Source of the DNA: Candidatus Bathyarchaeota archaeon
Lineage (GTDB): Archaea; Thermoproteota; Bathyarchaeia; Bathyarchaeales; Bathycorpusculaceae
DNA length: 64,000 nucleotides
Reading direction: 5' to 3'
Assembly: GCA_963775465.1 (NCBI GenBank)
Contig: CAVZIW010000008.1
Location: 82,746 to 146,745 of the forward strand
Shown here one piece after another: positions 4,976-53,150 of the stretch; position 1 is the first letter of the stretch; the number at the start of each line of letters is the position of its first letter. The position numbers and the translations under genes are program-made. Below the pieces are notes generated by a model. It saw only the letters and a program-made list of their open reading frames with translations, had not been told where the DNA came from and ran no database searches.

Positions 4976-6377
4976 CTGCAATGGGGAATCGTCTTTGGCA
5001 CAACCAAACCAAAAAACAAACTACATATTAAAAAAATCAACCTAAGCCAAACCCCACTAGAAATATTCTCAAAACTCCAAAAAAAATACCCAACAGTCTA
5101 CCTCCTCGAGTCTATCGAAGGACCACAAAAACTAGCCCAATACTCCTTCATCGGATTTAATCCAAAGACCACAATTCAAATTACTAAAGGCAAAGCAAAA
5201 ATAACCGACACCCAAACCCAAAAAACCACAACTGAACAGACAAACGATCCTCTAAAGCTGATCCAAAAACTACTCGAAAAAAATTCTCTTCAACACACTC
5301 AACTAAGATTTGTTGGAGGCGCAGTAGGCTACATTTCTTATGACGCTATTCGCTACTGGGAAAATCTACCTCATAAAAACAAGAATTGTGATTTTCCAGA
5401 CATAGAGTTTGGAATTTTCGAGGACGGCCTAATAATAAACCATATCGAAAATCAGGCTCTATATTATCATCGAAATGAAAATAGGCTTGCAGAAGTTGAA
5501 GATCTACTAAAAAAGCCTTATGAGCCCAACTTGCTATCTTGCACTCACCCAAAAGTTGAAACCACTAAAGAAAAATATGAAAAAGCAGTTGAAAAGGCCA
5601 AAGAATACATCAATGCAGGAGACATCTTCCAAGTTGTCCTCTCCAAACGTTTTCAATTTAAACTGCAGGGAAGCCTAATTCCCTTCTATGAAGCGCTTAG
5701 AACAATCAACCCTTCCCCATACATGTATTACCTCAAGTTTGGTAAACATCAAATCGTTGGCTCTAGTCCTGAAATGCTTATCCGCGTCGACAATCGCATG
5801 GTCGAAACTTTTCCAATTGCTGGCACTAAACCCATTGCCAAGACACATGCAGAAAACTCCAAATTAGCTACTGAATTACTCGCTGATCCAAAAGAGTGTG
5901 CAGAACATGTTATGCTTGTGGATCTTGCTCGAAATGATCTTGGTCGAATTTCAAAATACGGCACAGTTAGCGTACCAGAGTTTATGAAGGTTCACCAATA
6001 CAGTCACGTTCAGCATATCGTCTCACAAGTTGTTGGAGAACTAAAAGACGAGCTGCAAAGTTATGATGCAGTTAGAGCAGTGTTTCCCGCAGGAACCGTT
6101 TCAGGGGCACCGAAGGTTCGCGCTATGGAAATCATCGATGAACTTGAAACATCTGCCTAGAGGACCCTACGCCGGAGCGGTCGGGTACTTCTCCTACAAT
6201 GGCAATGCCGATTTTGCCATAACGATTCGCACATTATTTGCCGACGAAAACAAAGGCTACCTTCAAGCAGGGGCAGGCATCGTTGCAGACTCTGTCCCAG
6301 AACGAGAATGGTTTGAAACAGACTACAAGGCAAAAGCGCTTATAAGCGCTCTTGAAATAGCTGGGGGCAAAAAACCA
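4976..6377 (+). CDS. trpE: Anthranilate synthase component I; start uncertain (CTG 4976), +1 frameshift at ~6156
   Basis: Open frame from 4964 gives YLLESIEG..AQYSFIG, GGAVGYISYD, GDIFQVVLS, NPSPYM, EHVMLVDLARNDLGR, FPAGTVSGAPKVRAMEII; continues in the next frame as RGPYAGAVGY...AGAGIVADS. Confidence 0.9.
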
Positions 6378-6962
6378 CTGAAGGTTCTTGTCATTGATAA
6401 TTATGATTCTTTTGTCTATAACCTTGTACAATACATTGGTGAACTGGGCGCACAAACAATCGTTTTTCGAAATAACCAAATAAGCCTCGTAGACGCAGCC
6501 AAGCTAAAGCCTGACAGAATCGTTATTTCACCAGGTCCAGGAAACCCTGAAGACGAAAAATACTTCGGCGTTTGTACCCAAATCCTCCAAACCCTCAGTC
6601 CAGTCATCCCCACATTGGGCGTCTGCTTAGGGCACCAAGGAATAATTCACGCTTACGGCGGAAAAATAATTCACGCCAAAAAACTCATGCATGGAAAGAC
6701 CTGCACCATAAAACACAGTCAAAAAGACATATTTGCCGGAGTTCGCAATCCCTTCAACGCAACAAGATACCACTCCCTCGCGGGCTCAAGAGACTCAATC
6801 CCCGACTGTCTTGAAATCACCGCCGAAGCAATTGACGACAACGAAATCATGGCAATAAAACACGTCAAATACCCCATTTACGGAGTTCAATTCCACCCAG
6901 AATCAATCCTATGCGAAGACGGCAAGCTTATAATCAAAAATTTCTTGGAGCGAAAACTATGA
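6378..6962 (+). CDS. trpG: Anthranilate synthase component II (glutamine amidotransferase), in frame with the TrpE C-terminus
   Basis: VIDNYDSF, SPGPG, LGVCLGHQ, RYHSL and GVQFHPES motifs. Confidence 0.93.
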   Translation: MKVLVIDNYDSFVYNLVQYIGELGAQTIVFRNNQISLVDAAKLKPDRIVISPGPGNPEDEKYFGVCTQILQTLSPVIPTLGVCLGHQGIIHAYGGKIIHAKKLMHGKTCTIKHSQKDIFAGVRNPFNATRYHSLAGSRDSIPDCLEITAEAIDDNEIMAIKHVKYPIYGVQFHPESILCEDGKLIIKNFLERKL

Positions 6963-13994: not shown

Positions 13995-14271
13995 TCAGAT
14001 AGTTCCCTCTCTATTCTCCAACCCAATATTACAGTCAACTATAAAAATCGATTTCTCAAAAAAAGAAAAAACAGGTTAGCAAAAACGAATCCGAAGCTCT
14101 TATTTCAGCCAAATTAATTTCCCTGGGCAGAATTATCTATTGAATTCATCAGTTTTTCAAACTTTCAAATCGGCTGGCATAGAAACAATTGAATCTAAAG
14201 AAGACATTTTATGGATTTGATAATAACCTTGTTTTGAAGTAACGAGAATCTGGTGCATCTGCAAAAATTAG

Positions 14272-14919
14272 TTATCTTATTGAAGCGGTTGCAACTTGTT
14301 TAACAGCTTTAGCGTCGAGCACATTCAAGATTCCATTCTTGCCAAGACGCAGCTGTTTTTCACCTCGGAAAACGCAAACTTGACCATTCCGCAACTCGAT
14401 ATTATCACCAACTGCGATAGATCCAATTTGCCCCTCCCAAAGACACAATTTCATTTTTCCCGTTTCATCCCCAACTACAGCATTAACAACCATAACATTA
14501 TTACCAAATTGTGTGTGAACCTGTGCTGGTTTTGGTACTTCAAGAACCTCAGCTTTCAAATTTACTTTTTTCATGCCTGCTCTTAGGTCCCGAATCACCG
14601 AATAGATTGATTCATTGTTTTGTTTGGCAATTTTCTTCTTTATTTTATCGGTGCTCATCCAGCTTTCAAACGGATTATCTTTCCTTAAAAGGAACTCGTC
14701 ATCTACACGGAATTGAGCGACTACATCACTATTCTTCGTAATTAGAAAAATGGTTTCGCCCTTAATTTGTCCACGAAATTCAACGGTGAGGTTGCCACAT
14801 ACGGCTTTCTCATTTTTCCTTGCAGCAACTAACGCTTGGAACATTTCGTTAGGGTAAATACTGTATTTGACTGAAAGCAAAGCTAAATGTTCGCCTAAAG
14901 TTGATTTTTTCTGTCGCAA
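14272..14919 (-). CDS. OB-fold single-stranded nucleic-acid binding protein (SSB/RPA-like) with N-terminal extra domain
   Basis: IRDLRAGMKKVNLKAEVLE...GDETGKMKLCLW...GEKQLRLGK, typical of archaeal SSB OB folds. Confidence 0.8.
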   Translation of the reverse strand: MRQKKSTLGEHLALLSVKYSIYPNEMFQALVAARKNEKAVCGNLTVEFRGQIKGETIFLITKNSDVVAQFRVDDEFLLRKDNPFESWMSTDKIKKKIAKQNNESIYSVIRDLRAGMKKVNLKAEVLEVPKPAQVHTQFGNNVMVVNAVVGDETGKMKLCLWEGQIGSIAVGDNIELRNGQVCVFRGEKQLRLGKNGILNVLDAKAVKQVATASIR

Positions 14920-15191
14920 ATTCCTCTCTCTATCCTTTAAAGTTGCCGAGAAAAAGCAAAACCTGACTTGCTAATTTTCTCAATCGGTTCAACTATGTCT
15001 GGCTACCTATATTAGTTTGACTATGGATCTTTTGAAGTTAATATCCCCTTCGTAAATTCATAAATCGAAGTTTACATGTTTGTTTGTCACCTTGCGAGCA
15101 TTCAATTTATAAGTATGTATGATGTGATAGGTGTAATGTGTAAAAAGCAACTTTTTTACACATCCAATATAGTAGGAGTTGAAAATAGAAA

Positions 15192-15335
15192 ATGTCATAC
15201 GGTAACAGAGAGATGCACAAGGCAACCTGCGCTGACTGCGGAAAAGAATGTGATGTTCCTTTCAAGCCAGACGGCACAAGGCCAGTTTACTGCCGAGAAT
15301 GCTACTCTAAACGAAGACCACCAAGAAGATACTAA
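15192..15335 (+). CDS. Small CxxC-x17-CxxC zinc-ribbon protein (47 aa), missed by the ORF track
   Basis: MSYGNREMHKATCADCGKECDVPFKPDGTRPVYCRECYSKRRPPRRY; AGGAG upstream; T-tract downstream. Confidence 0.9.
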   Translation: MSYGNREMHKATCADCGKECDVPFKPDGTRPVYCRECYSKRRPPRRY

Positions 15336-15369
15336 GCTAGCAGCTAAGCATCTTTCTAACTAGTCTAAA

Positions 15370-15388
15370 ATTTTCTTTTTTATTTTTA
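15370..15388 (+). terminator. Oligo-T archaeal terminator after the small zinc-ribbon gene
   Basis: TTTTCTTTTTTATTTTT tract about 35 nt after the stop. Confidence 0.55.
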
Positions 15389-15498
15389 TAATTTTCATCC
15401 ACCCAACAATTTGTTTAAGTCGCTTTCATTTGACCCCCTCATAGCAACTATAAATTCTTATAATCCGCAAAACAAATAACTGAGCGGAGCCTTCAAAA

Positions 15499-16275
15499 TT
15501 GAAGCAATTTCTGATAACACCCGCAGCGGGTAAACGTTTAATCGCCAAGACAATCGCAAACCACCCATCCATCCGGAAAGCCATCAGAAACAACAGCGTT
15601 GTGATCGTGGCTGGAACAACAAACGGTTATGTGGCAGAAGAAATTTTAAAAACATACAAAATAGCAGACGACTTTTCAAGAAAACATTTCTTCCGCGGAT
15701 TAACTATGCCATCTACGCTGAAAGTTTCTGCTGAAGGCAGATTAAAAGATGAAAGCCAGTTTCCAGGTGACGTTGTCATTGTTAAGGGCGTTTGGGAAAG
15801 AGACAAATCGATAAATGATGTAATCGATGTTCTCAAGGAAGGAGACATCATTCTAAAAGGTGCAAACGCTTTAAACTTGGCTCGTCGCCAGGCTGCAATT
15901 TTGATAGGTCACCCAAAAGCTGGAACTATCGGCCTAGCTCTGCCTGCAGTTGTAGGACGTCGCGTCAGGCTTATTTTGCCTGTTGGGTTGGAAAAACGGG
16001 TAGATTGCGATTTAAATGCTTTAGCTACTAAACTTAATATTCCCGGAGAGGGAGGATACCGTTTGCTACCTGTGCCCGGTGAAATTTTCACCGAGATTGA
16101 CGCTTTGACAGCGCTAACAGCTGCACACGTCGAGTTAATTGCAGCAGGCGGAGTCTGTGGAGCGGAAGGCGGCTGTTGGATTGCTGTTACAGGTGAGCCT
16201 GAACAGGAAGCTTTCGCCGAGCAAGTTCTTATCTCCTTAGCGGATGAACCTCCCTTTACCGAAGAATACCTTTAA
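15499..16275 (+). CDS. Conserved hypothetical protein (alpha/beta fold)
   Basis: 258-aa ORF with [29 protein letters not shown] and [10 protein letters not shown] segments; TTG start with GGAG RBS. Confidence 0.8.
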
Positions 16276-16556
16276 GCTATTTCTAGATAAGCTGCTCCTC
16301 AAGACTGCAAATCTTCTAATTTCCTCTCTCCTCCATTCGGGACTTTTGCCAAAAAAGCTGCATAAAAACGCGGTCAAACTCGACGTCGCCTAAAATTTCC
16401 TTTTGAAGTTATTATCACCTGTTTCCATAAATCTAATTCCTCAAAGTCAAATAAAAAAGATCTAATAAGCAATCTATGGATCAATTTTCTATCGTTTCAA
16501 ACCTTAAATGGATAAGAGAACACACCAGCAGGTCCTAAAAAATTTAAAATCAATGC

Positions 16557-16603
16557 TTAGTCAAGAAACTTTGACTTAAGTTAGTCAAGAAAACTTGACA
16601 AAA
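16557..16603. promoter_or_regulatory. Tandem palindromic operator, two copies of TTAGTCAAG-N4-(C/T)TTGAC with 24-bp period
   Basis: TTAGTCAAGAAACTTTGACTTAA-G-TTAGTCAAGAAAACTTGACAAAA, immediately upstream of BRE/TATA-like AAACCCTTAAT. Confidence 0.75.
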
Positions 16604-16638
16604 ACCCTTAATTTGAAAGAATCAACCCATCTTTAAAC

Positions 16639-16788
16639 ATGACAAAAACTGCAAATGGTTTGATACTGCGTATTGCTATTTTGTTGGTTTCAAGTTTCAG
16701 TTCAATAGCTATTGTCTCGTGTATTTTCGTAAGCTTTATAAGATTTTGGTTGGATAATCCATCCATTAAATGGACTGAAAGAATATGA
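16639..16788 (+). CDS. Possible 49-aa hydrophobic leader ORF overlapping the btuF start (ATGA)
   Basis: MTKTANGLILRIAILLVSSFSSIAIVSCIFVSFIRFWLDNPSIKWTERI*; ATG about 30 nt after a TATA-like box. Confidence 0.4.
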   Translation: MTKTANGLILRIAILLVSSFSSIAIVSCIFVSFIRFWLDNPSIKWTERI

Positions 16789-17756
16789 AAAAAAGTTTGC
16801 TATCAATAATAGCGATAATAGTAATAGCAACCATCCTGATAGCTGCCTTTATATACCTCAACTATACCTCCCCAAACAGTTCAAACAATACCAATCTCTC
16901 AGTTGTCGACGATGAAGGATATACTACCACTTTCTCCTCGATTCCGCAAAGAATTATTTCTCTTGCCCCAAGCAACACCCAAATCCTCTTTGCCATAGGC
17001 TTAGATGACAAAGTTGTGGGAATAACCGATTATGACCATTATCCTTACAACTTTACTGCTTGGATAGAAGCTGGAAACATTACCAGTATCGGGGGTTTCT
17101 CTACACCTAACAAAGAAACCATCGCCTCGTTAAAACCAGATTTGATTTTGGCTACGCCTATTAATGATCCGGATGTTGTGACTTTGCGGGATTTAGGTTA
17201 CAAGGTTTTGGTTTTGAACCCTAATGATGTTGATGGTGTGTTAGGTGATATTTCTATGGTGGGTAAAGCTGCTGGTGTGGATCAGAATGCAGCAACGCTT
17301 GTGGATTCTTTAACTAGCCAGATTGACGCTATTGAAGCAAAAATTGCTTCTGCTGATTTGCCTAAGCCTAAGGTTTACTATGAGGTGTGGACTCCTCCTT
17401 TGATGTCTGCTGGTAATGGCTCGTTTATTAATGATGTGATTTTGAAGGCTGGTGGGGTTAACATTTTTGGCGGTGAAAGTCAGCAGTATCCTGCGGTTAG
17501 TTCTGAAACGGTGGTGCAGAGTGATCCTGATGTTATTATGTTGCCTTCTGAGATGGCTAATACTGGGGAGGCGCCTTTCTATGGGAGTGTGGCTGATGTT
17601 AAGGCTAGGCCGGGTTGGAGTTCGATTAGTGCGGTGGAGAATGATCGGGTGATAGTTGTTAGTGGGGATTTGTTTGCTGAGGCAGGGCCAAGAATTGCGG
17701 AGCAGATTGCGGTGGCAGCTGAAGCGTTTTACCCAGAACTCTTTAATTCAACCTAA
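16785..17756 (+). CDS. btuF: Cobalamin/corrinoid ABC transporter substrate-binding protein
   Basis: N-terminal TM anchor; PQRIISLAPSNTQILFAIG, YYEVWTPPLMSAG and AGGVNIF motifs. Confidence 0.85.
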   Translation: MKKSLLSIIAIIVIATILIAAFIYLNYTSPNSSNNTNLSVVDDEGYTTTFSSIPQRIISLAPSNTQILFAIGLDDKVVGITDYDHYPYNFTAWIEAGNITSIGGFSTPNKETIASLKPDLILATPINDPDVVTLRDLGYKVLVLNPNDVDGVLGDISMVGKAAGVDQNAATLVDSLTSQIDAIEAKIASADLPKPKVYYEVWTPPLMSAGNGSFINDVILKAGGVNIFGGESQQYPAVSSETVVQSDPDVIMLPSEMANTGEAPFYGSVADVKARPGWSSISAVENDRVIVVSGDLFAEAGPRIAEQIAVAAEAFYPELFNST

Positions 17757-17776
17757 CCCTTTTTTTGTGTTTACAA

Positions 17777-18859
17777 ATGTCAGTTGATGAAGTCCAAAAA
17801 AAATATTCAAAACGACCGTATAGATGGAAACTCATACTACTAACCTTAGTAGCCGCATTAGTCCTTTTTATTATACTTTGTTTGAACGTTGGGTTTGCTC
17901 CCATTAGTTTCTCAGACATAATGACTATTATAGGCAAACAAGTGCCCTTTCTCAATCAATACATAAACCCATCATCTGTTTCCGTTGTTAATGAAGCCAT
18001 AATCCTGCAAATACGATTGCCACGTATTTTAGCGGGAGCAATAGTCGGCGCAGGATTAGCCGCAGCAGGAGTAATGTATCAAGGTATATTTAGAAACCCA
18101 ATGGCCGACTCTTACCTGCTTGGTGCGTCAGCAGGCGCCTCTTTTGGCTACACGTTAGCTGTCTTATACGGTGGAACTCTAGCCGCTAACATTTTAGGGA
18201 TGGGACTATTCCAAATAGTTGCTTTTTTGGGAGCGGTACTTACCGTATTTCTTGTTTACTTCATGTCACGAGTTGGAAACAAAGTTCCCATAACAACGCT
18301 CTTGCTTTCAGGCATAGTTGTTAACATTTTCATCTTGTCTCTACAAACAGTATTCGAGCTACGTTCTGGACAAGCATTAATGGGAATTGTAGCTTGGATC
18401 GCCGGAGGATTTACCAACATAACTTGGACTAGCATATACACGGTTTTCCCAGTTGTATTGATTGGGACGGTTCTTGCATATTTCTTCACCAAAGACCTCA
18501 ACTTGCTATCGATGGGCGACGACACTGCCCAACATCTAGGAGTGAATACAGAAAGAGTGCGCCAGATTCTTCTGCTGCTGAGTTCTTTAGTTACCGCCGC
18601 AGTAGTGTCAATTAGCGGGATAATAGGGTTTGTAGGACTTATCATTCCTCACATGACTCGGCTTATTATAGGACCAGACCATCGCATTCTTCTACCCACA
18701 TCTGCAATCGTCGGAGCTATATTTTTAATACTATGTGACTCTTTAGCAAGGGTTGCTACAGGAGCCTCTGAGCTTCCAGTGGGCGTTATAACAGCTTTGG
18801 CGGGAACACCCTTCTTCATCTACCTGCTTAGAAAACGAAAAACTAGCTATTCATTATAA
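17777..18859 (+). CDS. btuC: FecCD/BtuC family ABC permease
   Basis: IRLPRILAG, QGIFRNPMAD, IGFVGLIIPH and ELPVGVITALAG motifs. Confidence 0.9.
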   Translation: MSVDEVQKKYSKRPYRWKLILLTLVAALVLFIILCLNVGFAPISFSDIMTIIGKQVPFLNQYINPSSVSVVNEAIILQIRLPRILAGAIVGAGLAAAGVMYQGIFRNPMADSYLLGASAGASFGYTLAVLYGGTLAANILGMGLFQIVAFLGAVLTVFLVYFMSRVGNKVPITTLLLSGIVVNIFILSLQTVFELRSGQALMGIVAWIAGGFTNITWTSIYTVFPVVLIGTVLAYFFTKDLNLLSMGDDTAQHLGVNTERVRQILLLLSSLVTAAVVSISGIIGFVGLIIPHMTRLIIGPDHRILLPTSAIVGAIFLILCDSLARVATGASELPVGVITALAGTPFFIYLLRKRKTSYSL

Positions 18860-18872
18860 TGGAGAAAAAAAC

Positions 18873-20222
18873 ATGGTAATACTGTCAGTCGATGGAGTAG
18901 AATGCCGTTACGGCTCGATTAAGATTCTAGAGAACGTTAGCTTAACTTTCAAGGAAGGAGATTTTGTCGGAATTCTGGGACCCAATGGTTCAGGAAAGAG
19001 TACACTTCTCAAAAGCATCAGTCGAACCCTCAAACCAACCAAAGGGACTGTGCTCCTCGACAAAACTGACATTTACGATATGAAAAGTGTTGATTTAGCT
19101 AAGCATATGGCCATAGTGCCCCAGGAAAGTAACATCGGCTTTAGCTTCACAGCTCTTGACATAGTTCTTATGGGACGTAACCCCCACATGAAACGGTTTC
19201 AGATGGAATCTGAAAAGGATATGGTGATTGTCCGTAAAGCTATGAAACAAACCAACACTTGGCAATTGGCAGACCGACCAATAAATGAACTGAGCGGAGG
19301 TGAAAAACAGCGGGTGGTAATCGCCCGTGCACTTGCACAAGAACCAAGAGTCCTGTTACTCGATGAACCACTAACCCATTTGGATCTAATTAACCAATTA
19401 GAGATCATGGATCTGGTTCAGGGCTTGAGTGCAAGGGATCACTTGATTGTTTTGGCAGTAATTCACGACTTAAACATAGTAGGTCGCTACTGCACCTCAG
19501 CTATTCTGCTTAAGGATTCATGTATTTACGCAGCAGGTCCACTTGATCAAGTCTTGACAAGTGCGAATATTAAAAACGTTTTTCATGTTGACGCCATCGT
19601 CAAAAAGAGTCCAGTCACGAATTCACCCTACGTTATTCCGCTCTCACCTCAAAAGACCTCGCTTGAACGCAAATGCGCTATCCACATAATATGTGGCGCC
19701 GGAACAGGTACTCTGATAATGAAAGCATTAGTGGATGAGGGCTATGTAGTGACAACGGGTGTTCTTAACACGTTAGACACTGATTATGAGACTGCTGAAC
19801 TCCTGAGAATTCCAACAGTAAGCGAGGCGCCATTTTCACCTATAACAAAAGAAACGAAGTTAGCAAACTTGGACATGATAAATCAAGCAGCTATCGTTGT
19901 TGTTACATCAGTTCCATTCGGGTTCGGCAACCTCTCTAACCTCGAAGCTGCACTGCAAGCACTGAAACAAGGCACTCGAACATACGTTATCGACGAGATT
20001 CCAATCGAGGTGCGAGATTTTACTAATGGTCGAGCAGTAACAATTTTTGCTGAACTGCGAAAACAGGGAGCGATATTCATAAAACATCCTTCTGAACTAC
20101 CCACTCTTGTAAATGCTACTCACAAATCGATTGAATTGTGTAAACTTGGACAAACTGAAATTCCAGGTCACTTAAAAGACGCAGTTAAAGTAATGCATTC
20201 AAAGAGAAAGGACGCAAAATAA
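18873..20222 (+). CDS. btuD: BtuD-type ABC ATPase with ~190-aa C-terminal Rossmann-like extension
   Basis: GPNGSGKST, LSGGEKQR, LLLDEP; extension IHIICGAGTG..VTTGVLNTLDTD. Confidence 0.88.
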   Translation: MVILSVDGVECRYGSIKILENVSLTFKEGDFVGILGPNGSGKSTLLKSISRTLKPTKGTVLLDKTDIYDMKSVDLAKHMAIVPQESNIGFSFTALDIVLMGRNPHMKRFQMESEKDMVIVRKAMKQTNTWQLADRPINELSGGEKQRVVIARALAQEPRVLLLDEPLTHLDLINQLEIMDLVQGLSARDHLIVLAVIHDLNIVGRYCTSAILLKDSCIYAAGPLDQVLTSANIKNVFHVDAIVKKSPVTNSPYVIPLSPQKTSLERKCAIHIICGAGTGTLIMKALVDEGYVVTTGVLNTLDTDYETAELLRIPTVSEAPFSPITKETKLANLDMINQAAIVVVTSVPFGFGNLSNLEAALQALKQGTRTYVIDEIPIEVRDFTNGRAVTIFAELRKQGAIFIKHPSELPTLVNATHKSIELCKLGQTEIPGHLKDAVKVMHSKRKDAK

Positions 20223-21322
20223 TGCAAAAAGCTGGGACCCCGATTCCATTTGGTGCAGAAAAACACAACAGAAAACTAAATCACTTCATCTGGTCTTGCA
20301 CCCGTGCTTACCCGGTTAAACATGTGTTTTCCCTTGGCGATGGCAAGCCTTTGCCAAATGAACTCAATACCGTTGAAGCTAAATCAATGCTCAAGAAAGT
20401 AGCTGATTTCGGGGTCGATAACTTGTTCATTTCGGGCGCAGGTTGGACAGGTGAACCGTTGATGCGCAAAGACTTCTCAGAACTTATCCGTTATGCATCT
20501 GAGCTTAAGTTGTCGCCTTACGTGAAAGTTACTGGTTGGCACTTTGACCAAAAGGTAGCTAACGAGTTAAAGGCAGCTGACTGTAAAGCCATCATTTGTT
20601 TTGCGGGACTTAAGGAAACTGACACCAAGCTCCGCGGCGAGGGCGCTTTTGAAGGAAGTACAAACGCCGCGCAACTATGCAAAGAAAACGGCATTCCATT
20701 CGCGGTAAGCGTAATCAATACAAAATACATCGCCAACCAAGTTACTGCTTTAGTCGAATTTGCGATAGGCTTAGAAGCACAAAGCTTCCACTTGGCATCC
20801 CTGATTCCGCAGCCCATAGATGTTGAAAATCAACTCGAGATTTTAGCTCCACTAGAACCAACTCCTCAACAAAGGGAAGACCAACTAGAAGAAGTTTACC
20901 ACTTAAACAAGAAGAAGCATGGTATAATTTCGATTGTACCTTACGAAATGTTCAACAACCGTCTACTCAAGACGAAAGATCCAGCCATTGAACTTAGAAG
21001 CACCTGCAGTATGTGTGATAACTTGCACAAGAACGAGTGGCTGGAAATCTTGGAAGATGGAAAAGCCTACGCATGTGCGCCTCTTAATCTAAAATTTGGC
21101 GATATAAGAGTTGACAGCATTGAGCAAATCATGGCTCGGATGAGAACCTCTGAGCGCCTGAAGTGGCTTGCTGACCGTAGTAACCTTAAGGGTAAATGCG
21201 GCATCTGTGATTATCAATCGATCTGTGGTGGTTGTAGAGCTCGAGCCTATATTTACACTAAAGACTATCAAAATCAGGATCCTGCATGTGTCTACATACC
21301 GAAAAAGGTCGAGAGAACATGA
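20222..21322 (+). CDS. Radical SAM/SPASM (NirJ/Ahb-like) homolog lacking the CxxxCxxC motif
   Basis: WSCTRA-YPVKHVFS in place of TRA-CxxxCxxC; ELNT, GEPLMRKD and RGEGAF motifs; SPASM CGICDYQSICGGCRARAY..DPAC. Confidence 0.85.
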   Translation: MQKAGTPIPFGAEKHNRKLNHFIWSCTRAYPVKHVFSLGDGKPLPNELNTVEAKSMLKKVADFGVDNLFISGAGWTGEPLMRKDFSELIRYASELKLSPYVKVTGWHFDQKVANELKAADCKAIICFAGLKETDTKLRGEGAFEGSTNAAQLCKENGIPFAVSVINTKYIANQVTALVEFAIGLEAQSFHLASLIPQPIDVENQLEILAPLEPTPQQREDQLEEVYHLNKKKHGIISIVPYEMFNNRLLKTKDPAIELRSTCSMCDNLHKNEWLEILEDGKAYACAPLNLKFGDIRVDSIEQIMARMRTSERLKWLADRSNLKGKCGICDYQSICGGCRARAYIYTKDYQNQDPACVYIPKKVERT

Positions 21323-21942
21323 CAAAAAATTATACATTTGATTCCCTAAAGAAAAAAGCCGCAGAGTTAGGTGCTGTTTCTGCAAAGATAATTTCAACAA
21401 AGAGTATCGTAATAGAAGACAGGGTTGTCTTAAAATGTAAACTTGGATGCGAAAAATACGGAAAAACATTGGCTTGCCCGCCGTATGCTCCAACTCCAGA
21501 TCAATTCCGAAAAATCGCAAATGAATACCATTATGCTATGTTTTTGAAGTTTAAGACAACAGCCCAAGCAAACTCCCAATTGATACCTCACCTAACAAGA
21601 ACAAACGATCCAACCCTTCCACCAGAGATAAAAAAGAAGGTGGATGCTTTCTGGTCTAGTTGGAAGATCAATACGCAAAAACTGCTAAGAGCCGTTTTAA
21701 CACTCGAAAAGGCAGCTGTTAAAGAAGGATACCTTCTGGCTGTTGGCTTTGTTTCGGGTTCTTGTCAACTTTGTGAAAATTGCAACTTAGAAAAAGGAGT
21801 GTGCATTCATCCTGAGACTAGACGCTACTCAGAGGAGGGGGTTGGAGTAAACGTTAAATCTACAGCGGAGAAAGCTGGAGTAGAATTTACTTTGCCTTTT
21901 GAGAAGACCCCGGAAACGTTTGCTCTGCTTTTAATTGATTAG
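21319..21942 (+). CDS. DUF2284 predicted metal-binding protein
   Basis: KCKLGCEKYGKTLACPP, GSCQLCENC..CIHP..RYSEEGVGVNV motifs; ATGA overlap with the upstream gene. Confidence 0.85.
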   Translation: MTKNYTFDSLKKKAAELGAVSAKIISTKSIVIEDRVVLKCKLGCEKYGKTLACPPYAPTPDQFRKIANEYHYAMFLKFKTTAQANSQLIPHLTRTNDPTLPPEIKKKVDAFWSSWKINTQKLLRAVLTLEKAAVKEGYLLAVGFVSGSCQLCENCNLEKGVCIHPETRRYSEEGVGVNVKSTAEKAGVEFTLPFEKTPETFALLLID

Positions 21943-22093
21943 ATACTTTGAATGTGAAAAGACTATTCTTTATTATTGGACGGATCTCGAAATCATTATC
22001 ATCAATGAACGCAATTAAAATAGAAATGTAATCTAAACCTTAAATAACAAAGACTCCAAACAAACAACCAGACTTAGCATTGCAGGGGTCAAA

Positions 22094-23179
22094 ATGAGCA
22101 TTAACCCAAAAATCAAAGGTATACAAGCTCAAGTCAAAGGAAGTGTACTTGTTATTCAATCCAAAACTCCTTTGAGGATTCTTAGTTCAGCTATTTTTAA
22201 CGGAGGTTTAAAATATGCAAACGCTTTGCTCAACATTCAGGTTCCAGAAGGCTTGGGCAGCGATAAAGACGATGTGCACTGGAGCCCTGAAGGTTTCTTA
22301 AACGAACAAGTGCAAATGCTAAATCTCGAAAAAGATAAAACAGTTGCACTTATGACAGCTGCCAAAATGCAAAACCTCGCAATCTGTCGTGACAAATGCA
22401 ATGAAACGGTATTGACTGTTTTTGCTACCGCCGGCAAAACAGTCGCCGTTACAGCAGGTGAACCTGCAGCTTCGAAAAACGGTTACAGAATTGGGACTAT
22501 AAATATTATTTTGCTCGTTGACGGAAACTTGACAGAGGGCTGTATGGTTGAAATCATTAAAACCATGACTGAGGCAAAAACGGTTGCCCTGCGCGAATTG
22601 GATCTTAGAAGCCAATTTTCTGGCGATTTGGCGACTGGAACGTTAACTGATAGTGTTTTGGTTGGATGCACAAACAGAGGTGAGTTGATCCAATTTGCTG
22701 GAACCTTTACCCTTTTAGGAGAATTGATAGGGAAATGTGTGCGGCAAGCAGTTAAATTAGCTCTCCAAAAACAGGAGAAACTTATCTCCGCAAGGCCGTT
22801 AATGGAGAGATTGGTTGAACGAGGCATATCACATCAGGTCATCATGTCGTTGAAGCCGGATCTAAAAAACAAAAATGTTAAGTTGATTCAAAAACAACTG
22901 GAGCTTCTTTTTATGGATAAAAATGTTGTTTCTCTTATTCTAGCGAGTCTTAGAATAGATGAAGATTATAGAAAGGGTTTAATCCCGGAAGGTGCAACCA
23001 GAAAAATCGATAAATCAACCTTCGAAGAGATCGCCTTTGCATCTTTAAGATGTCAGTTAAACGATGACACTTTCCTAGATGTCAAGAGTAAAATGGCAAC
23101 CGAACCAATGTTTCCGGGTCCCTTCACAAAGTGCCTTTTACTATCTATTCTAGAAAAAGCTGACTTAGCTGCTGCTTAA
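22094..23179 (+). CDS. cbiZ: Adenosylcobinamide amidohydrolase CbiZ with C-terminal CobZ-like (CbiS-type) extension
   Basis: LSSAIFNGG, LMTAA, GTINIIL, TEAKT and ATGTLTD motifs; tail ERLVERGI..DKNVVSLILAS. Confidence 0.85.
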   Translation: MSINPKIKGIQAQVKGSVLVIQSKTPLRILSSAIFNGGLKYANALLNIQVPEGLGSDKDDVHWSPEGFLNEQVQMLNLEKDKTVALMTAAKMQNLAICRDKCNETVLTVFATAGKTVAVTAGEPAASKNGYRIGTINIILLVDGNLTEGCMVEIIKTMTEAKTVALRELDLRSQFSGDLATGTLTDSVLVGCTNRGELIQFAGTFTLLGELIGKCVRQAVKLALQKQEKLISARPLMERLVERGISHQVIMSLKPDLKNKNVKLIQKQLELLFMDKNVVSLILASLRIDEDYRKGLIPEGATRKIDKSTFEEIAFASLRCQLNDDTFLDVKSKMATEPMFPGPFTKCLLLSILEKADLAAA

Positions 23180-23257
23180 GCCCTTCGCTAAACAGCCCGC
23201 TAAAGAAAAACATTACTATTCATACGGAAAAATAACATTCATTGGCTGGTGAATAGC

Positions 23258-23958
23258 CTGGGACCCTTCGATAATCTTTATCCTCTTAACCGGATTAGCG
23301 TTAGGTATAGTTCACTCTTTTGACCCTAACCATCTTATTGCTGTTTCAGCCTTGCTAATGCAATAATAAAAGCCTTCACAAATCAGTTGTCTCAGCCAAT
23401 GTGTGGGGAATCGGTCATTCCTTTATGCTTTTTTTGTGGGTTTGTTTATATTAATTTTCAAAGTGGCAATTCCAGATGCTATTGTTAACATTTTTGCACT
23501 TGCTGCTGGCATTCTGTTAATAATTTTAGGTGCCTTTATGCTTGGACCTATAATTGCCCAAAGACTTGGTCTAATCCACACAAAGAAACAAACTGATTAC
23601 CCATTATTGCTTGAAAATCAAATTGATTCAACCAAAGCGGTCAACATTCACTCTTTCACAAATCAGCCTTCACAGGCGCTTAGCAGGGGCTTGGCGGCAG
23701 TGCATAATTGATGTTAGTTACATTGGCAACTGTAAGTTCAGCTCAGTAGAGATAGGCTTGATTTTTATTATCTTATTTGGGTTAGGCTTAATATTTGGTA
23801 TGGTTTGCATCTCCTGTTTGTTGGGATCTATTATTGCATATGCAGCAAACAACTTGTCTAAAATTCACTTAATAATTATAGTTGTCACGGGTTCAGTGAG
23901 TAGCGGATTTGGCTTATTTATATGCTTGAACATTTTAATATTGAATAGCGATCTATGA
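23258..23958 (+). pseudogene. Decayed UreH/NiCoT-like nickel/cobalt permease
   Basis: Fragments in different frames: GLALGIVHSFDPNHLIAVS, WGIGHS, QGLGGSA*LMLV, GLIFIILFGLG; several frameshifts and an in-frame TAA. Confidence 0.7.
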
Positions 23959-24053
23959 TAATAACAACTTTTGAACGTTTAATAGTGATTCGCAATTCAA
24001 TCGGATTAAAAAAAATGAGAAAGATGTTGGAAGACAACCAACATTTGCGGCTT

Positions 24054-24584
24054 TTAGGTTTCGTTGAAAGTTGAGGCTGAAATTGTTGGGTTTATAACAA
24101 TATCGGAGACCACTGCGGATCCGATTGTTGTATCGTCGATTGAGTATGTAGCGTCTTCTCCGTTCCAATGTGTAAGGTTGTCTAGATAGTCTTGCCATGT
24201 TGCGCCCCAAGCAAGCCAATCGTCAGCAAAAACGCCTGCAGTCCATGTGGCTCCACTGTCCGTGCTTTCCCAAGCTGTTTGAGTGCCAGCGTTTAATATG
24301 TATGCATAGCCTCCTTCGAGGTCAACTCTGAATGTAACCATGTCGGAATGAATATCTTTGCCTTGCCACATGTACGTTGTTGTTGTTCCACCGCTTGTTA
24401 CGTCAGCGCTAAAAGATACGGTTGTTGCATCTGCTATCCCTGAAGGACCAGGCGTTGGAGTTGGTGTGGCTTCAGTATTGCCACTATTTCCGTAGTAGTA
24501 CCATGCTGCAACTCCTGCAATGACGATAATGATAATTACGACCGCAACAATAGCATAAGTTGATGTTTTACTCATAGTTTTCAC
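24054..24584 (-). CDS. Membrane-anchored surface protein with Thr/Pro linker
   Basis: N-terminal TM helix, ATPTPTP linker, acidic Thr/Trp-rich beta domain. Confidence 0.8.
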   Translation of the reverse strand: MKTMSKTSTYAIVAVVIIIIVIAGVAAWYYYGNSGNTEATPTPTPGPSGIADATTVSFSADVTSGGTTTTYMWQGKDIHSDMVTFRVDLEGGYAYILNAGTQTAWESTDSGATWTAGVFADDWLAWGATWQDYLDNLTHWNGEDATYSIDDTTIGSAVVSDIVINPTISASTFNET

Positions 24585-24771: not shown

Positions 24772-26862
24772 TTATTTTTCGATTGAAATCTTGCTAACTC
24801 CAGCGTCTTTGTCGAGGGTAATTACGTGGTCAGCTTTGGCTGCGAAGGCTTCGCTGTGGGTTACTGCAATTATTTGTTCTATGGCTTTAAAACGGCTAAT
24901 AGCCTCTGCTAAGCGTTCAATACTGCCATCTTCACTTCCCAAGTTCTCAGTAGGTTCATCAAGCATAAGCATGCTAAGCCCATGTCCTGTCCTCGATAGC
25001 ATAATAAGTTGACCTAAACCTAACCGATATGCAAACGCCAGTAATGTGCGTTCTCCACCCGAGAGGTTACTTACTTCGCGTTCAAAGCCCCTTTCGCTTT
25101 TTACATAAGGTGTGTAAGTCTCATCGATAAGTACATTTAGAATTGGGGATTCGTCGCCCACCAAGCCGTCAAGCACTTGTTGAACAAAATTGCGTAGAAC
25201 CTTCACAAACTCACTTCGCAATTTAGGTTGAATGCTACGGTAAGCATCACGCATAGCTCCCAAAATTTCGGTGGTTTTACGGATTTTCTCTATTCGCTCC
25301 ATCTTTTCCTGTGCTAGGTTGATGCGTTCTTTAACGTCATTTAGGCATCTGGCGAGATCTCTTTTACGGTTTTCTTTTGTTCGCAAATCAGCCTCTAACA
25401 TGTAGTATTGACGAAAAGCTTGCTCTCGGTGATTTTTTGCCGCTTCAACATCGGAAAGATTAAATCTGCTGATTTCAAACTGTAACTCATGCAATTCTGA
25501 ATGTAAGTCGTTCTCAAGTTTTTGTTTTTCTTCATATTCTCTAAAGAGATTAGTAAGGTTTTGATCTTCTTCAGCCATTCGCACTTTTAAGTCAGTAACT
25601 CGAGTAACGTATTGACTCAAGGTTGAATGTGTCTCTGAGGCAACGTTTTTAGTTTTTTGGAGGTCTGCTATTTGAAGCCTTAGTTGGTTAATGGTTTTTT
25701 CTCGTTCGATATTTTCTTGGTTAATTCTACTCATCAAGTCTGTTTTGTATTTGCCTGTTAGAGGTTGGATACAAAGTGGACATTTGTCTTCGTTTCCTAA
25801 GGAGACTGCTCTTTTTTGATCCTGTTGCATGCTTCGTGAGGTTGCTTCTTGCTCGGCCTTTAGGGTGCTTATTTTGTCATCGAAGCCTAATAGAATATTG
25901 CGTAATTCTTCGATGGATTGATGAGAAGATACTCCTGTTTGCTGGAGCTTTTCATAGCATGTTCTTATTTGGGTTTCCAGTGAGGTTTGACGTTGGTGCA
26001 AGTTGTCAACGATGGTTTTTTTGCCTTCAATTCGTTGGGCAAGTGACACTAGAGTGGTTGACATGTTTTGGATGTTGGCGTTGCATCGAGCTTCTTTACG
26101 CTTTAGTTCTTCTACTGAGAATTTTTTCTCTTCCAACTGCTTCAGATTTGTGTTAGCTTCATCGAGAGTTTTTCTAGAAATCGTCAGTTTTTGGGTTGAA
26201 TTCTCCAAATCCATTTCTATTAATGTAAACTCTTCTGTAGCACGATTATATTCGTTGCTAAGTTTTTCCATACTATTAACATCTGGATCTTTCTCGTAAA
26301 GCCTTTTTTCGGTTTCATAATCTCTTTGATATTGAGCAATATTGCTCCAAGCAACTTCATAATCTGAAAGTCCAAATAATTCATCCAACCGTCTTTGTCT
26401 ATCTCTGGGTGAGGAATCAAGTAGTTCTTTGAGATGTTCTTGTCTGAACCAGACGATCTCACGGTAGAGTTCTTTGTCTAACCCCGTTATGGCTTTGATT
26501 TGTTCGGCTATAGCGTCATTTTTCATGCTAGCGACTAGTTTGTCATCTTCGTATAGTTTGAGTTGTTCATTATCTTGAGTGATGTTTTTTCCTTTGCGTT
26601 TTAAACCACGTGTAAGCTTGTAGGTTTTGCCATTTTGAGAGAATACCATCGTAACTCTGCACCAATCAGCGTCTTCCCGTATTAAATAATCAAAGCTTCT
26701 ACTTCCAATTGTGTCGCCAAACAAGGAAAAATCAACTGCGTAGAGTACACTTGATTTGCCCCGTCCGACACCTCCAACGAGGCAGTTGAATCCTCGTGTA
26801 AAAGGCACGGTTGATTTGATGTGGCTGCGGATGTTTTCGAGTTGGACGATTTCTATTTTCAA
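24772..26862 (-). CDS. rad50: DNA double-strand break repair ATPase Rad50 (696 aa)
   Basis: Walker A GGVGRGKSS, coiled coil, zinc hook CPLC, signature LSGGE, LDEPT; downstream of mre11. Confidence 0.9.
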   Translation of the reverse strand: MKIEIVQLENIRSHIKSTVPFTRGFNCLVGGVGRGKSSVLYAVDFSLFGDTIGSRSFDYLIREDADWCRVTMVFSQNGKTYKLTRGLKRKGKNITQDNEQLKLYEDDKLVASMKNDAIAEQIKAITGLDKELYREIVWFRQEHLKELLDSSPRDRQRRLDELFGLSDYEVAWSNIAQYQRDYETEKRLYEKDPDVNSMEKLSNEYNRATEEFTLIEMDLENSTQKLTISRKTLDEANTNLKQLEEKKFSVEELKRKEARCNANIQNMSTTLVSLAQRIEGKKTIVDNLHQRQTSLETQIRTCYEKLQQTGVSSHQSIEELRNILLGFDDKISTLKAEQEATSRSMQQDQKRAVSLGNEDKCPLCIQPLTGKYKTDLMSRINQENIEREKTINQLRLQIADLQKTKNVASETHSTLSQYVTRVTDLKVRMAEEDQNLTNLFREYEEKQKLENDLHSELHELQFEISRFNLSDVEAAKNHREQAFRQYYMLEADLRTKENRKRDLARCLNDVKERINLAQEKMERIEKIRKTTEILGAMRDAYRSIQPKLRSEFVKVLRNFVQQVLDGLVGDESPILNVLIDETYTPYVKSERGFEREVSNLSGGERTLLAFAYRLGLGQLIMLSRTGHGLSMLMLDEPTENLGSEDGSIERLAEAISRFKAIEQIIAVTHSEAFAAKADHVITLDKDAGVSKISIEK

Positions 26863-28065
26863 TTCGCCAACTCCTCGATAGCCTGTTTTATTTTTTCATC
26901 CTGTCTCTTTGCCAATGGTTCAACGAGATTAATTGCTGTATTAGCAATTTTTTTTGCGTCTTCTTTTCCAAATCTTTCGTTAAAAATTTGCTCAAAATAC
27001 TCAAATGCTTTAGTCTTTAGGTCTTTAAATCCGCCCTCAAAGATTGACCTAACGGTTTCTTCTGAAACAGCCGTTTCTTTAAGTAATACAATTGGGTGGA
27101 CGATAAGAGCCTTTTTGGCGGCTGCCCGAATTTTTCCTAAATCAATTTCTGTGCGACTCGCTTCCGCAGGCAAAGTACCTTTCAATACGGGTACTACAAC
27201 CGCATCTTGGCAATCAGCTTCTTTTACCATTTGAGTGGCTATCTCGGTAATTCTTGTTGATGGCATACCCGTGAAGTCATGTTCCAATATAACGAATCTT
27301 CTGGGGGAAGTTAATTCTATCACTTCAGGCTGGATTTGGCCTTTTTCATCAACTTTAACGTGGTAAAAGCCCTTGATTACTGTGGCTTCGTTATAACTAA
27401 CAGTTTCTGTGCATCCGCTATAAGCTATGATAACCTTCTTTGAATTTAGCCAAGAATCGTTCGTGTACATGTCCCGCTGCATAGTAGCAGAAGCCACTGG
27501 GCAGTTGTTCGGGTGAAATTTCTGCCTCAATATAGGGTGGCTTTACATTTGGTAGATCCACTGCTCCGTGCAAGACAAAGATGTTAGCGATGTCGGCTTC
27601 TGGAGTTGGAATGTTTTCAGCCATAAACTTTGGGAGTTCTTGTTGTGTTTTGTGTCGGTTGTGATAGTTTGGGATGCCGTAAACATAGCAGGATTCGGTC
27701 TTTCTCCAACATGCGCCTTGGTGTCTTGGCAGATGAATGATAAGTCCTGCGCTGTCTAACGGATATAGAATGGTGCTGGTGATGGTATTTGGAGCTGAAT
27801 CATGTGATCCATCTACAGTTAGAACTGGAATATCTGCATCTTTTAGTAGCTTAAAGCTTCGTATAGTGTTTTCTAATGTAACATTGGTTGGACGTGCTTG
27901 ATGGAATATGTCGCCTGCAATAATCATGAAGTCAGGTTTTAACTCGATTGTTTTCTCTACAAGCTCTCTGAATGCGTTATCAAAGTCTTGCCTTCTAGCC
28001 TCTAAGCCATACTGTGAATAGCCTAAATGCAAATCTGATGCGTGAACAAACCTGAACGGTTTCAA
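26859..28065 (-). CDS. mre11: Mre11 nuclease, split by a +1 frameshift at ~27435
   Basis: DLHLG, AGDIFH, GSHD and AGHVH phosphoesterase motifs; removing one T joins KFKEG to IIAYSGCTE. Confidence 0.9.
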
Positions 28066-52304: not shown

Positions 52305-52411
52305 GTTCCTTTTAATTCGAAGCAAGACTCATATAAGGTTTCCATTGAGTCATTGCTTTGCAATAATCTTTATTTTCGCTGACTACTCAGAATTATTTGT
52401 GCTGATAGAAG

Positions 52412-53032: not shown

Positions 53033-53150
53033 CTCTTTTTGTATCTGAAACTTGACGGTTTGATTTTTTATGCCCTTTTAAAATAACCATAAATGTTAAT
53101 GAGCCACCCACACCATACTGCTTACCATATCTTTGGTGGATGTGCACAAA

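Follow-up and report, generated by a model that had tools for sequence, protein, structure and literature searches.

What does a radical S-adenosylmethionine (SAM) protein do once the three cysteines that hold its SAM-cleaving cluster are gone, and what is such a protein doing in an operon for vitamin B12 uptake? The question is raised by a 64,000-nucleotide (nt) stretch of DNA from Candidatus Bathyarchaeota archaeon (GenBank assembly GCA_963775465.1, contig CAVZIW010000008.1, positions 82,746 to 146,745 of the forward strand; hereafter the window), in which an open reading frame (ORF) at 20222..21322 encodes a radical-SAM/SPASM homolog without the CxxxCxxC motif. We call its product the window protein, and the window protein together with its homologs lacking CxxxCxxC the Cys-less family; codes with L denote fetched contigs, codes with P denote homologous proteins, and G000 is the window's own genome. 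The evidence set out below makes it highly probable that the window protein is a functional, non-radical Fe-S accessory of corrinoid salvage.

The gene belongs to one same-strand string at 16785-23179 with the order btuF, btuC, btuD, window protein gene, DUF2284 gene and cbiZ (Table 1), in which btuF and btuC are 8 nt apart, btuC and btuD 13 nt apart, and 151 nt precede cbiZ. Its start codon is overlapped by the btuD stop (TAATG at 20220-20224) and its own stop overlaps the DUF2284 start (ATGA at 21319-21322), coordinates that bear out both couplings proposed in an initial annotation of this DNA. The same annotation took the ORF to be full length, in agreement with a product of 366 amino acids (aa) without internal stop, and claimed that the three cysteines had been replaced in frame by tyrosine, histidine and serine. 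Residues 24-37 indeed read W-S-C-T-R-A-Y30-P-V-K-H34-V-F-S37, followed by ELNT at 47-50, and the in-frame codons at Y30, H34 and S37 are TAC, CAT and TCC. These three residues fall on the three cluster-cysteine columns both in a profile alignment (hhalign) with true, that is cysteine-bearing, relatives and in a column comparison, so that codons and alignments agree on the substitutions. The change of GGEP to GAGWTGEP was also read correctly: SGAGWTGEP covers residues 71-79, G-E-P is kept in spite of a 4-residue insert, and the insert columns 73-76 are gapped in all true relatives of the column comparison. All of the cysteines said to be intact are found in the ORF, in the blocks C262-S-M-C265, A-C285, C326-G-I-C329...C335-G-G-C338-RARA and DPA-C356. 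The CX2CX5CX2CX17C spacing among them equals the auxiliary-cluster motif of AhbD, whose auxiliary cluster is proposed to act in electron transfer via the substrate iron (PMC10114771, excerpt).

Homology to radical-SAM/SPASM enzymes is evident despite low scores in the family libraries. The Pfam Radical_SAM model (PF04055) matches the window protein at 22.8 bits, under its cut-off of 29.5, and some other members of the Cys-less family exceed that cut-off (33-51 bits). Two SPASM profiles pass (PF13186, 22.6 bits with a cut-off of 21.5; TIGR04085, 36.1 bits with a cut-off of 27), the best NCBIfam matches are NirJ2 (TIGR04055, 134.4 bits) and AhbD (TIGR04545, 131.9 bits) with cut-offs of 500 for both, and a match to TIGR04304 is confined to the SPASM part. 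When an alignment of 22 Cys-less family sequences (A1) was compared by hhalign with one of ten cysteine-bearing relatives (A4), the probability was 100 (E = 3.8e-89, 338 columns), and the Y-x3-H/Y-x2-S loop was put onto C-x3-C-x2-C. The column comparison comprised 20 Cys-less family rows, 8 rows of the sister clade introduced below, 62 true Bathyarchaeial paralogs and 7 proteins named 'heme b synthase' (AhbD). Cysteine stands at all three cluster columns in 62/62 paralogs, 8/8 sister-clade proteins and 7/7 AhbD-named proteins, and the two analyses together uphold the initial alignment of WxxTRA and ELxT with NirJ/AhbC/AhbD-like proteins. The residues at these columns demonstrate that binding of the SAM-cleaving [4Fe-4S] cluster in the canonical manner would be impossible for the window protein. 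Moreover, among columns conserved in at least 85% of the 62 true Bathyarchaeial paralogs and at least 70% of the 7 AhbD-named proteins, the Cys-less family has lost S126, D128, D135, T165, N170, Y218 and D227, and W304 is lost as well; of these, S126, D128, T165 and N170 may belong to the SAM-binding motifs of the superfamily (GGE, ribose and beta5/beta6 motifs). Seven SPASM cysteines are common to the family and all relatives compared, and C121, C153 and a 5-residue insert bearing C265 are gains specific to the family. Other family-specific residues include L38-G-D-G-K-P, Y100, K102, D134, Q197, W273-L-E275 and Y283.

The predicted structure points in the same direction. An AlphaFold2 model built on A1 (mean predicted local distance difference test score, pLDDT, of 83; predicted template-modeling score of 0.85) has six beta-alpha units, from beta1 (19-27) to beta6 (188-192), with pLDDT in the 90s, forming a partial triosephosphate isomerase (TIM) barrel, plus the SPASM region. 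The former cluster loop is modeled as ordered (pLDDT 88-91), and low confidence is limited to the SPASM loops 258-261 and 325-334, which would need clusters. The top matches of the model in a Foldseek search against the PDB are radical-SAM/SPASM enzymes, namely PqqE (6c8v, E = 5.4e-16), SuiB (template-modeling score, TM, 0.70), SkfB, anSME, BlsE and CteB, with TM of 0.6-0.7 for PqqE, SuiB, SkfB and anSME; no AhbD or NirJ structure is among the Foldseek PDB matches listed. By sequence, the nearest solved chains are those of SkfB, PqqE and anSME.

The loss of the motif extends over the whole family. Among 112 full-length members (the window protein, P0123 and, of P0001-P0121, each listed homolog with 320 aa or more, anything shorter being excluded as a fragment), 0/112 have CxxxCxxC in the first 120 residues, and the best 120 of 534 homologs all lack it. 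Of the 112 members, 93 have Y at position 30, 65 have H and 28 have Y at position 34, and 102 have S at position 37. C262, C285, C326, C329, C335, C338 and C356 are present in every member and C265 in 108; P79 is invariant and E78 occurs in 108. In an exhaustive search of 1.84 billion representatives, no more than 15 clusters reached E ≤ 1e-30; at this threshold no protein with a length of 642-2000 aa was found, which is weak evidence against fused forms. The first cysteine-bearing homolog is P0124, a Tectomicrobia-labelled protein of 42% identity. In a 92-row tree (near-duplicates or fragments L001, L002, L008, L010, L012, L015, L019, L021 and L022 and non-family matches L003-L005 being left out), the 20 Cys-less rows lie on one side of a branch with a support of 99 in the Shimodaira-Hasegawa-like approximate likelihood-ratio test (SH-aLRT), and P0124 is their sister (99). 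A 43-row mixture-model tree, obtained by a quick search and adding five sister-clade members and AhbD-named and haloarchaeal sequences, gave an SH-aLRT support of 99 to the Cys-less clade, to the sister clade and to both together. Since the Cys-less family forms one clade, a single loss of the motif suffices.

Purifying selection is also clear. The Nei-Gojobori ratio of nonsynonymous to synonymous substitutions (dN/dS) is 0.132 between the window protein and its closest ortholog in L001 and lies at 0.031-0.080 in five more pairs whose dS is unsaturated; a further eight pairs were saturated and gave no ratio. The ORFs are intact in all loci used. A1, with members down to 50% identity from archaea and bacteria, has 59 invariant columns. 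Among 46 sequences thinned to <80% identity, conservation is highest in beta1 plus the former cluster loop (residues 19-50), where the mean entropy is 0.81 bits, compared with 1.24 bits in the rest of the barrel and 1.00 bits in the SPASM region. Because the former cluster loop is under the tightest conservation, we conclude that the old active site has been repurposed, not abandoned. The initial annotation had asked whether motif loss is clade-wide and purifying selection is at work, and had held that close orthologs with CxxxCxxC plus relaxed selection on this copy would speak against it; what we found is no member with the motif and dN/dS of 0.03-0.13. As judged from these sequences, the motif loss is a trait of the family and not the decay of one copy.

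The genomic context ties the family to corrinoids. Three scans of contigs, with one genome per species, gave 34 distinct family-bearing contigs after 11 repeat records of the same contigs had been discounted; by label, 26 are Bathyarchaeia/Bathyarchaeota, 1 is a Nanoarchaeia-labelled metagenome-assembled genome, 3 are Nitrososphaeria and 4 are Chloroflexota/Dehalococcoidia. In 34/34 contigs btuF, btuC or btuD adjoins the Cys-less family gene, and its neighbors are btuFCD, cbiZ and cobamide genes, not heme or siroheme genes. When a BtuFCD accessory is taken to be a gene in one string with Peripla_BP_2, FecCD and ATP-binding cassette (ABC) ATPase genes, the window and all 34 contigs qualify; contigs showing fewer than three of btuF, btuC and btuD end near the gene, except L190, which has btuF and a weak ABC-ATPase match only. 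CbiZ is present in 21/34 and DUF2284 in 20/34 contigs, so that the linkage to btu and cbiZ, named as a check in the initial annotation, is universal for the former and frequent for the latter. Gene order varies among lineages. With X for the Cys-less family member, the Dehalococcoidaceae locus L014 reads BtuF-X-CbiZ-BtuC-BtuD-CbiB-CobD-CobT, the Chloroflexota locus L016 BtuF-X-small radical SAM-BtuC-BtuD-CobQ-CobA, L017 BtuF-X-BtuC-BtuD-aminotransferase and L018 BtuF-X-small radical SAM-CbiZ-small radical SAM-BtuC-BtuD-aminotransferase. The gene lies between BtuF and BtuC in the Nitrososphaerales loci L017, L018 and L185, and a Bathyarchaeial subgroup (L178, L181 and L183) has BtuFCD-X-DUF71(B12)-CobS-CobY-like. 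The DUF71 family is predicted to replace CbiZ in B12 salvage (PMC3541065, excerpt). A paper on Bathyarchaeia genomes reports BtuFCD with CbiZ and many COG0535 radical-SAM genes (PMC11697101, excerpt); the window protein is not mentioned in the main text as excerpted, and Table S4/Fig. S10 of that paper may list the gene.

DUF2284, the other gene coupled to the window protein gene, was considered as a general corrinoid partner and rejected, as 0/30 DUF2284 loci in a phylum sample are btu-linked. Residue 200 (window 20819-20821) is D, N, G or E in family loci with DUF2284 downstream, with cysteine in 0/15, and is cysteine in 6/8 loci without DUF2284. This pattern may hint at a shared metal site and is confounded by phylogeny.

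How would such a protein serve salvage? By analogy with its relatives, we tentatively read it as a corrinoid escort or reductase for imported cobamides, descended from AhbD/NirJ-type enzymes, a reading that we favor while rating it a little short of probable. The former active-site pocket would hold the imported corrinoid (cobinamide or cobamide) leaving BtuCD, and one or two auxiliary [4Fe-4S] clusters would run electrons toward the substrate metal, opposite to their direction in AhbD. They would reduce cobalt from Co(III) to Co(II)/Co(I), and on reduction the upper ligand would come off, leaving the corrinoid prepared for CbiZ or DUF71-B12, for an adenosyltransferase and for CbiB. Both the pocket and the cobalt redox step are suggested because relatives bind metallated tetrapyrroles and the AhbD auxiliary cluster uses the same motif (PMC10114771, excerpt). 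The redox step is further suggested because salvage needs reduced cobalt before adenosylation, because a CobA adenosyltransferase gene is in the same string in L016, and because the window's genus goes largely without known adenosyltransferases: an enzyme of CobA type (PF02572) was found in 1/31 genomes of the genus and one of PduO type (PF01923) in 0/31, and neither was found in G000 (22/31 genomes being at least 90% complete and G000 92% complete). Upper-ligand and cobalt chemistry thus lacks assigned enzymes in this genus. The characterized substrate of CbiZ is adenosylcobinamide (PMC3541065, excerpt). G000 carries CbiZ, two copies of CbiB and two copies of CobS, and CbiD was not found in it; its organism looks like a salvage-only one whose adenosylation step lacks an assigned enzyme. 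A bolder version, in which the family is a new corrinoid-processing class that has given up radical chemistry and whose SPASM clusters serve as a low-potential wire to cobalt, thereby linking import through BtuCD with loss of the upper ligand and delivery to CbiZ or DUF71-B12, is possible and at present doubtful.

Several observations weigh against the escort or reductase reading. Only 8/20 same-genus btuD loci have the Cys-less family gene after btuD; 1/20 (L105) has DUF2284 alone, and 11/20 have neither within 1.5 kb, with cbiZ directly next in three of these (L113, L114 and L116) and a B12-binding radical-SAM gene next in one. Only 3/301 sampled Bathyarchaeia genomes have a match above 500 bits, the remaining matches being at most 244 bits and all cysteine-bearing paralogs, and in L014's class (Dehalococcoidia) 1/251 genomes has the gene, which is the seed genome itself. 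The gene is an optional, patchy accessory and is dispensable for the transporter. Furthermore, no conserved His, Cys or Asp that would be an obvious cobalt ligand was identified among the 112 members, and positions 30 and 34 are variable (Y/E/F/R and H/Y/Q/C/F, respectively). The electron path, as a reversal of that in AhbD, is argued by analogy. The sister clade (P0124/P0272-P0279, Tectomicrobia-labelled radical SAM proteins) is represented by a single locus, L101, whose neighbors are an epimerase, an alpha/beta hydrolase and a metallo-beta-lactamase-fold gene, with no btu genes, and a tetrapyrrole substrate would thus be inherited only at the level of the AhbD/NirJ group. The initial proposal that an enzyme has turned into a non-radical Fe-S protein linked to corrinoid import is well supported by the motif loss, the dN/dS ratios and the btu linkage. 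The particular roles it offered (corrinoid chaperone, cobalt reductase or upper-ligand processing factor) are candidates, and the reading has to be toned down in view of the optional presence of the gene.

It is also evident that true relatives occupy the same slot elsewhere. AhbD-like radical-SAM/SPASM genes with intact CxxxCxxC follow btuD in L025, L036, L053, L058, L060, L065, L066 and L073, with a second copy in L036 and L066 and with DUF71-B12 upstream in L025 and L066. Like the window protein, they stand after the same long BtuD in a salvage context, and in 7/8 loci (all except L065) their operons have the same upstream palindrome; they differ in keeping CxxxCxxC and are about 30% identical to the Cys-less family. 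In the 92-row tree they belong to two subclades within a large expansion among Bathyarchaeia, and descent of the Cys-less family from them was rejected (approximately unbiased (AU) test, p = 8.6e-47, for a group defined after the tree had been seen). As they form no clade with the Cys-less family, AhbD-like proteins seem to have been recruited into btu operons repeatedly. The closest relatives of the family remain the sister clade, which is 42-45% identical (SH-aLRT 99), shares Y100, K102, Q197 and W273-L-E275, already lacks D128, T165 and N170, and differs in retaining CNFHCLHC.

Small radical-SAM genes of another kind were seen near some family members. Activase-like genes of about 250 aa lie between the Cys-less family gene and btuC at L016:4814-5551 and L018:4246-5007, and a further one lies at L018:2527-3411. 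The small proteins of L016 (Chloroflexota) and L018 (Nitrososphaerales) are orthologous (36% identity, E = 7e-56). As an obligate partner such a protein was rejected, since it is missing from 4/5 family-bearing genomes searched (it was not found in G000, in G038 or in the genomes of L014 and L017).

These genes bear on the first of the alternatives to be weighed, in which the window protein is a non-catalytic scaffold or SPASM electron conduit for a separate active radical-SAM enzyme modifying the imported corrinoid. The orthologous small proteins inside operons of two distant loci are consistent with it, as are the true AhbD-like enzymes after btuD in eight other Bathyarchaeial loci, sometimes in two copies, the many active paralogs in G000 (17 matches) and the intermolecular electron transfer proposed between auxiliary clusters of radical-SAM proteins (PMC10470005, excerpt). 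The small radical-SAM gene is present in only 2/34 family contigs, though, and no active radical-SAM gene adjoins the family gene in operons of the window's type, so that we regard a scaffold or conduit as a minor possibility. It is improbable that the protein is instead a corrinoid or redox sensor tuning the transporter or the operon, for example docked on the C-terminal domain of BtuD. The gene is coupled in translation to btuD and is optional, the extra domain of BtuD is conserved in archaeal loci, and regulation does matter here, given the operator-like palindrome conserved ahead of the operon; against a sensor, BtuD lacks the extra domain in the Chloroflexota family loci and has it also where the Cys-less family gene is not next door, and eight conserved SPASM cysteines with a tight pocket loop exceed what simple docking would need.

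Still less likely is a radical enzyme that holds its SAM cluster on the non-canonical ligands C26, C121, C153 and C/D200. C121 and C153 are specific to the family (V and L in true relatives), C26 occurs in 99/112 members, and residue 200 is C in 50/112 and D in 39. In the model, C26 and residue 200 would lie at the C-terminal ends of beta1 and beta6, at the top of the barrel, and C121 and C153 at the N-terminal side of beta4 and at the end of alpha4, at its bottom, a placement that would make a single cluster site unlikely; several further columns conserved in true enzymes are lost, and the window protein itself has D200. That the operon and the window protein handle another tetrapyrrole (heme, siroheme-type or F430-type) is very unlikely. 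Relatives do act on intermediates of the heme pathway (PMC10114771, excerpt), transporters with Peripla_BP_2 and FecCD domains also carry heme and siderophores, and BtuD scores 329 bits (residues 2-348 covered) under the cut-off of 537 of the corrinoid ABC ATPase model NF007082 of NCBIfam; yet CbiZ, CbiB, CobS, CobT, CobQ, CobA, CobD and DUF71-B12 stand in the same strings in three phyla. Finally, the missing catalytic cysteines and the absence of the gene from many related operons would fit an inactive relic heading for loss, a view made extremely unlikely by the low dN/dS, the 59 invariant columns in two domains of life, the intact ORFs and an old active-site loop that is the most conserved part of the protein.

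If the bolder version of the escort or reductase reading is true, the family would contribute to the chemistry of cobalt and its upper ligand where CobA- and PduO-type enzymes were not found; together with the true radical-SAM enzymes in the same slot, it would mean that AhbD-like enzymes have been recruited at least twice onto salvaged corrinoids. The latter enzymes suggest undescribed radical chemistry on such corrinoids. In many anaerobes, Bathyarchaeia and Dehalococcoidia among them, growth is governed by cobamide salvage. Outside model bacteria, however, the steps that lead from the importer to the first salvage enzyme, in which cobalt is reduced, foreign upper ligands are taken off and the corrinoid is handed on, are poorly assigned. 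For this gap the Cys-less family offers a testable candidate, a small, soluble and conserved protein encoded in the operon in every case. Well-documented radical-SAM proteins that have lost the defining cluster and are still strongly selected are rare, and this one is useful for asking what SPASM clusters and a barrel pocket do alone.

The surroundings of the gene add further features to the operon (Table 1). The palindrome ahead of btuF has the consensus TGGAT(A/T)ATCCA and is kept in 12/12 aligned orthologous btuF upstream regions. It occurs at 1 site in the window, with 0.02 expected, and at only 2 sites in the whole 2.4-Mb genome, the second one (G000 contig 12, L195 about 1490-1530) having the same arrangement upstream of another BtuF-like gene. 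It is carried by L006-L013, L025, L036, L053, L058, L060, L066, L073 and other loci, and may be the operator of a regulon for corrinoid uptake in Bathyarchaeia. An Rfam search at E up to 1 over window 14000-24500 gave 0 matches to riboswitches or other RNAs, and no cobalamin riboswitch. The extra domain of BtuD, which occurs in Bathyarchaeial and Nitrososphaerales loci and is missing from Chloroflexota loci, bears the motifs H-x3-G-x-G-T-G, D-T-D-x-E, A-P-F-S, F-G-x-G-N-L and R-D-F-T-x-G; it belongs to no Pfam family, and sequence searches of the PDB gave no relative. Orthologs of the 258-aa ORF upstream of btuF occupy the corresponding position in many family loci of Bathyarchaeia, and the ORF has no Pfam, NCBIfam or PDB-sequence match. 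Similarly, the DUF2284 protein has no significant PDB match by sequence. CbiZ bears a C-terminal extension of about 130 aa that is weakly like the alpha-ribazole phosphatase CobZ (E = 0.001), and it matches the NCBIfam model of the bifunctional CbiS at 142 bits (cut-off 250).

Elsewhere in the window, a trp operon (trpE/G/D/C/B/A) lies at 5.5-10.8 kb, with the chorismate-binding domain split over two overlapping ORFs (5531-6962), the second of which has the last 60 or so profile positions of that domain fused to a glutamine amidotransferase; the split could be a frameshift or a natural fusion. The Mre11-like region on the minus strand also consists of two overlapping ORFs, 27418-28065 and 26859-27530. 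Outside the window, class B (B12-binding) radical-SAM genes are numerous on G000 contig 3, where an island at 176-216 kb (L191 and L192) holds AhbD-like radical-SAM/SPASM paralogs, four B12-binding radical-SAM genes and a HemN-like gene, along with an Rnf/FrhB-like fusion, PQQ-repeat proteins, CbiB, a CobD-type aminotransferase, CobS and a CobY-like gene.

Table 1. Features of the window, with positions counted from its first nucleotide.
Feature	Position	Strand	Details
Conserved 258-aa ORF upstream of btuF	15499..16275	+	Orthologs at 69-80% identity
TATA box and palindrome	16735..16761	+	TTTATAA 16735-16741; TGGATAATCCA 16751-16761; 24 nt ahead of btuF ATG
BtuF-like substrate-binding protein	16785..17756	+	Pfam Peripla_BP_2, 2e-33
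BtuC-like permease	17765..18859	+	Pfam FecCD, 5e-91
BtuD-like ATPase	18873..20222	+	Pfam ABC_tran, 9.5e-36
BtuD extra C-terminal domain, about 185 aa	about 19668-20219	+	38 invariant columns in 12 sequences
Cys-less radical-SAM/SPASM homolog (window protein)	20222..21322	+	366 aa, no internal stop
Former radical-SAM cluster loop	20291..20350	+	Residues 24-43, WSCTRA-Y-PVK-H-VF-S-LGDGKP
GAGWTGEP, GGEP motif with 4-residue insert	20435..20458	+	Residues 72-79
SPASM region	21005..21289	+	Cys 262, 265, 285, 326, 329, 335, 338, 356
DUF2284 predicted metal-binding protein	21319..21942	+	Pfam PF10050, 2.2e-42
CbiZ (adenosylcobinamide amidohydrolase)	22094..23179	+	Pfam CbiZ, 1.9e-56
Rad50-like (SMC_N) and Mre11-like (Metallophos) pair	24772-28065	-	
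CbiB gene	44191-45168		
HemN/HemW-like radical-SAM gene with HemN_C domain; CorA transporter	49354-50613, 51222-52325		
Large helicase: DUF4011 / AAA_11-AAA_12, MTES_1575 endonuclease domain, DUF3320	53133-58821		Two adjacent ORFs

Finally, we compared the window protein with described systems. Pfam and NCBIfam have no model specific for the Cys-less family, and no description of a cysteine-less radical-SAM/SPASM protein in btu operons was found in the literature searched; as far as these libraries and this literature show, the family is new. Public names of its members are 'radical SAM protein with 4Fe4S-binding SPASM domain', 'AdoMet-dependent heme synthase' and 'SPASM domain-containing protein', and in Protein Atlas the homolog P0009 falls in generic 'radical SAM protein' clusters only. 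Because sources name members 'radical SAM protein' or 'AdoMet-dependent heme synthase', the family matters for annotation. The GeoRSP system pairs a true radical-SAM/SPASM protein with a SPASM protein lacking the radical-SAM motif.

The NCBIfam family TIGR04347, 'pseudo-SAM/SPASM protein' of Halobacteria, implies the same idea by its name and matches the window protein weakly (89.3 bits, cut-off 525). In a sample of 251 genomes, 20 have a protein above its cut-off, and of these we read 12 loci (L123-L134). As a precedent the family was rejected, since CNLYCxHC is intact in 12/12 of them and their context is of heme type; 9/12 stand beside a second radical-SAM/SPASM gene and 0/12 have btu genes within 1.5 kb, and the family name seems misleading. 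HVO_1121 of Haloferax is presumably a member of TIGR04347. This gene is listed as ahbC (PMC8305020), and the gene pairs fit the ahb-nirJ1/nirJ2 pair described in haloarchaea (PMC3004389; PMC8305020).

Two characterized proteins resemble the proposed role rather than the protein. The heme chaperone HemW, which is HemN-like, also reuses the fold of a tetrapyrrole enzyme as a carrier (PMC10114771, excerpt); it differs in belonging to a subfamily without SPASM, in keeping its three cysteines and cluster, and in handling heme. The corrin reductase PduS, likewise an Fe-S protein, reduces cobalamin so that it can be adenosylated again (PMC2982820, excerpt), the same redox role as we propose for the window protein, whereas its flavoprotein fold is unrelated and it belongs to the pdu microcompartment instead of an uptake operon. 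The nearest comparison is with AhbD, AhbC and NirJ of alternative heme and heme d1 synthesis, which have the same fold, an identical C-terminal CX2CX5CX2CX17C and the W-x-x-T, G-E-P, R-G-x-G and K-G-K-C-G blocks in common with the window protein. From these enzymes the window protein differs in having no CxxxCxxC, in the loss of several barrel residues, in scores far under the 500-bit cut-offs, and in a context of corrinoid transport and salvage instead of heme synthesis.

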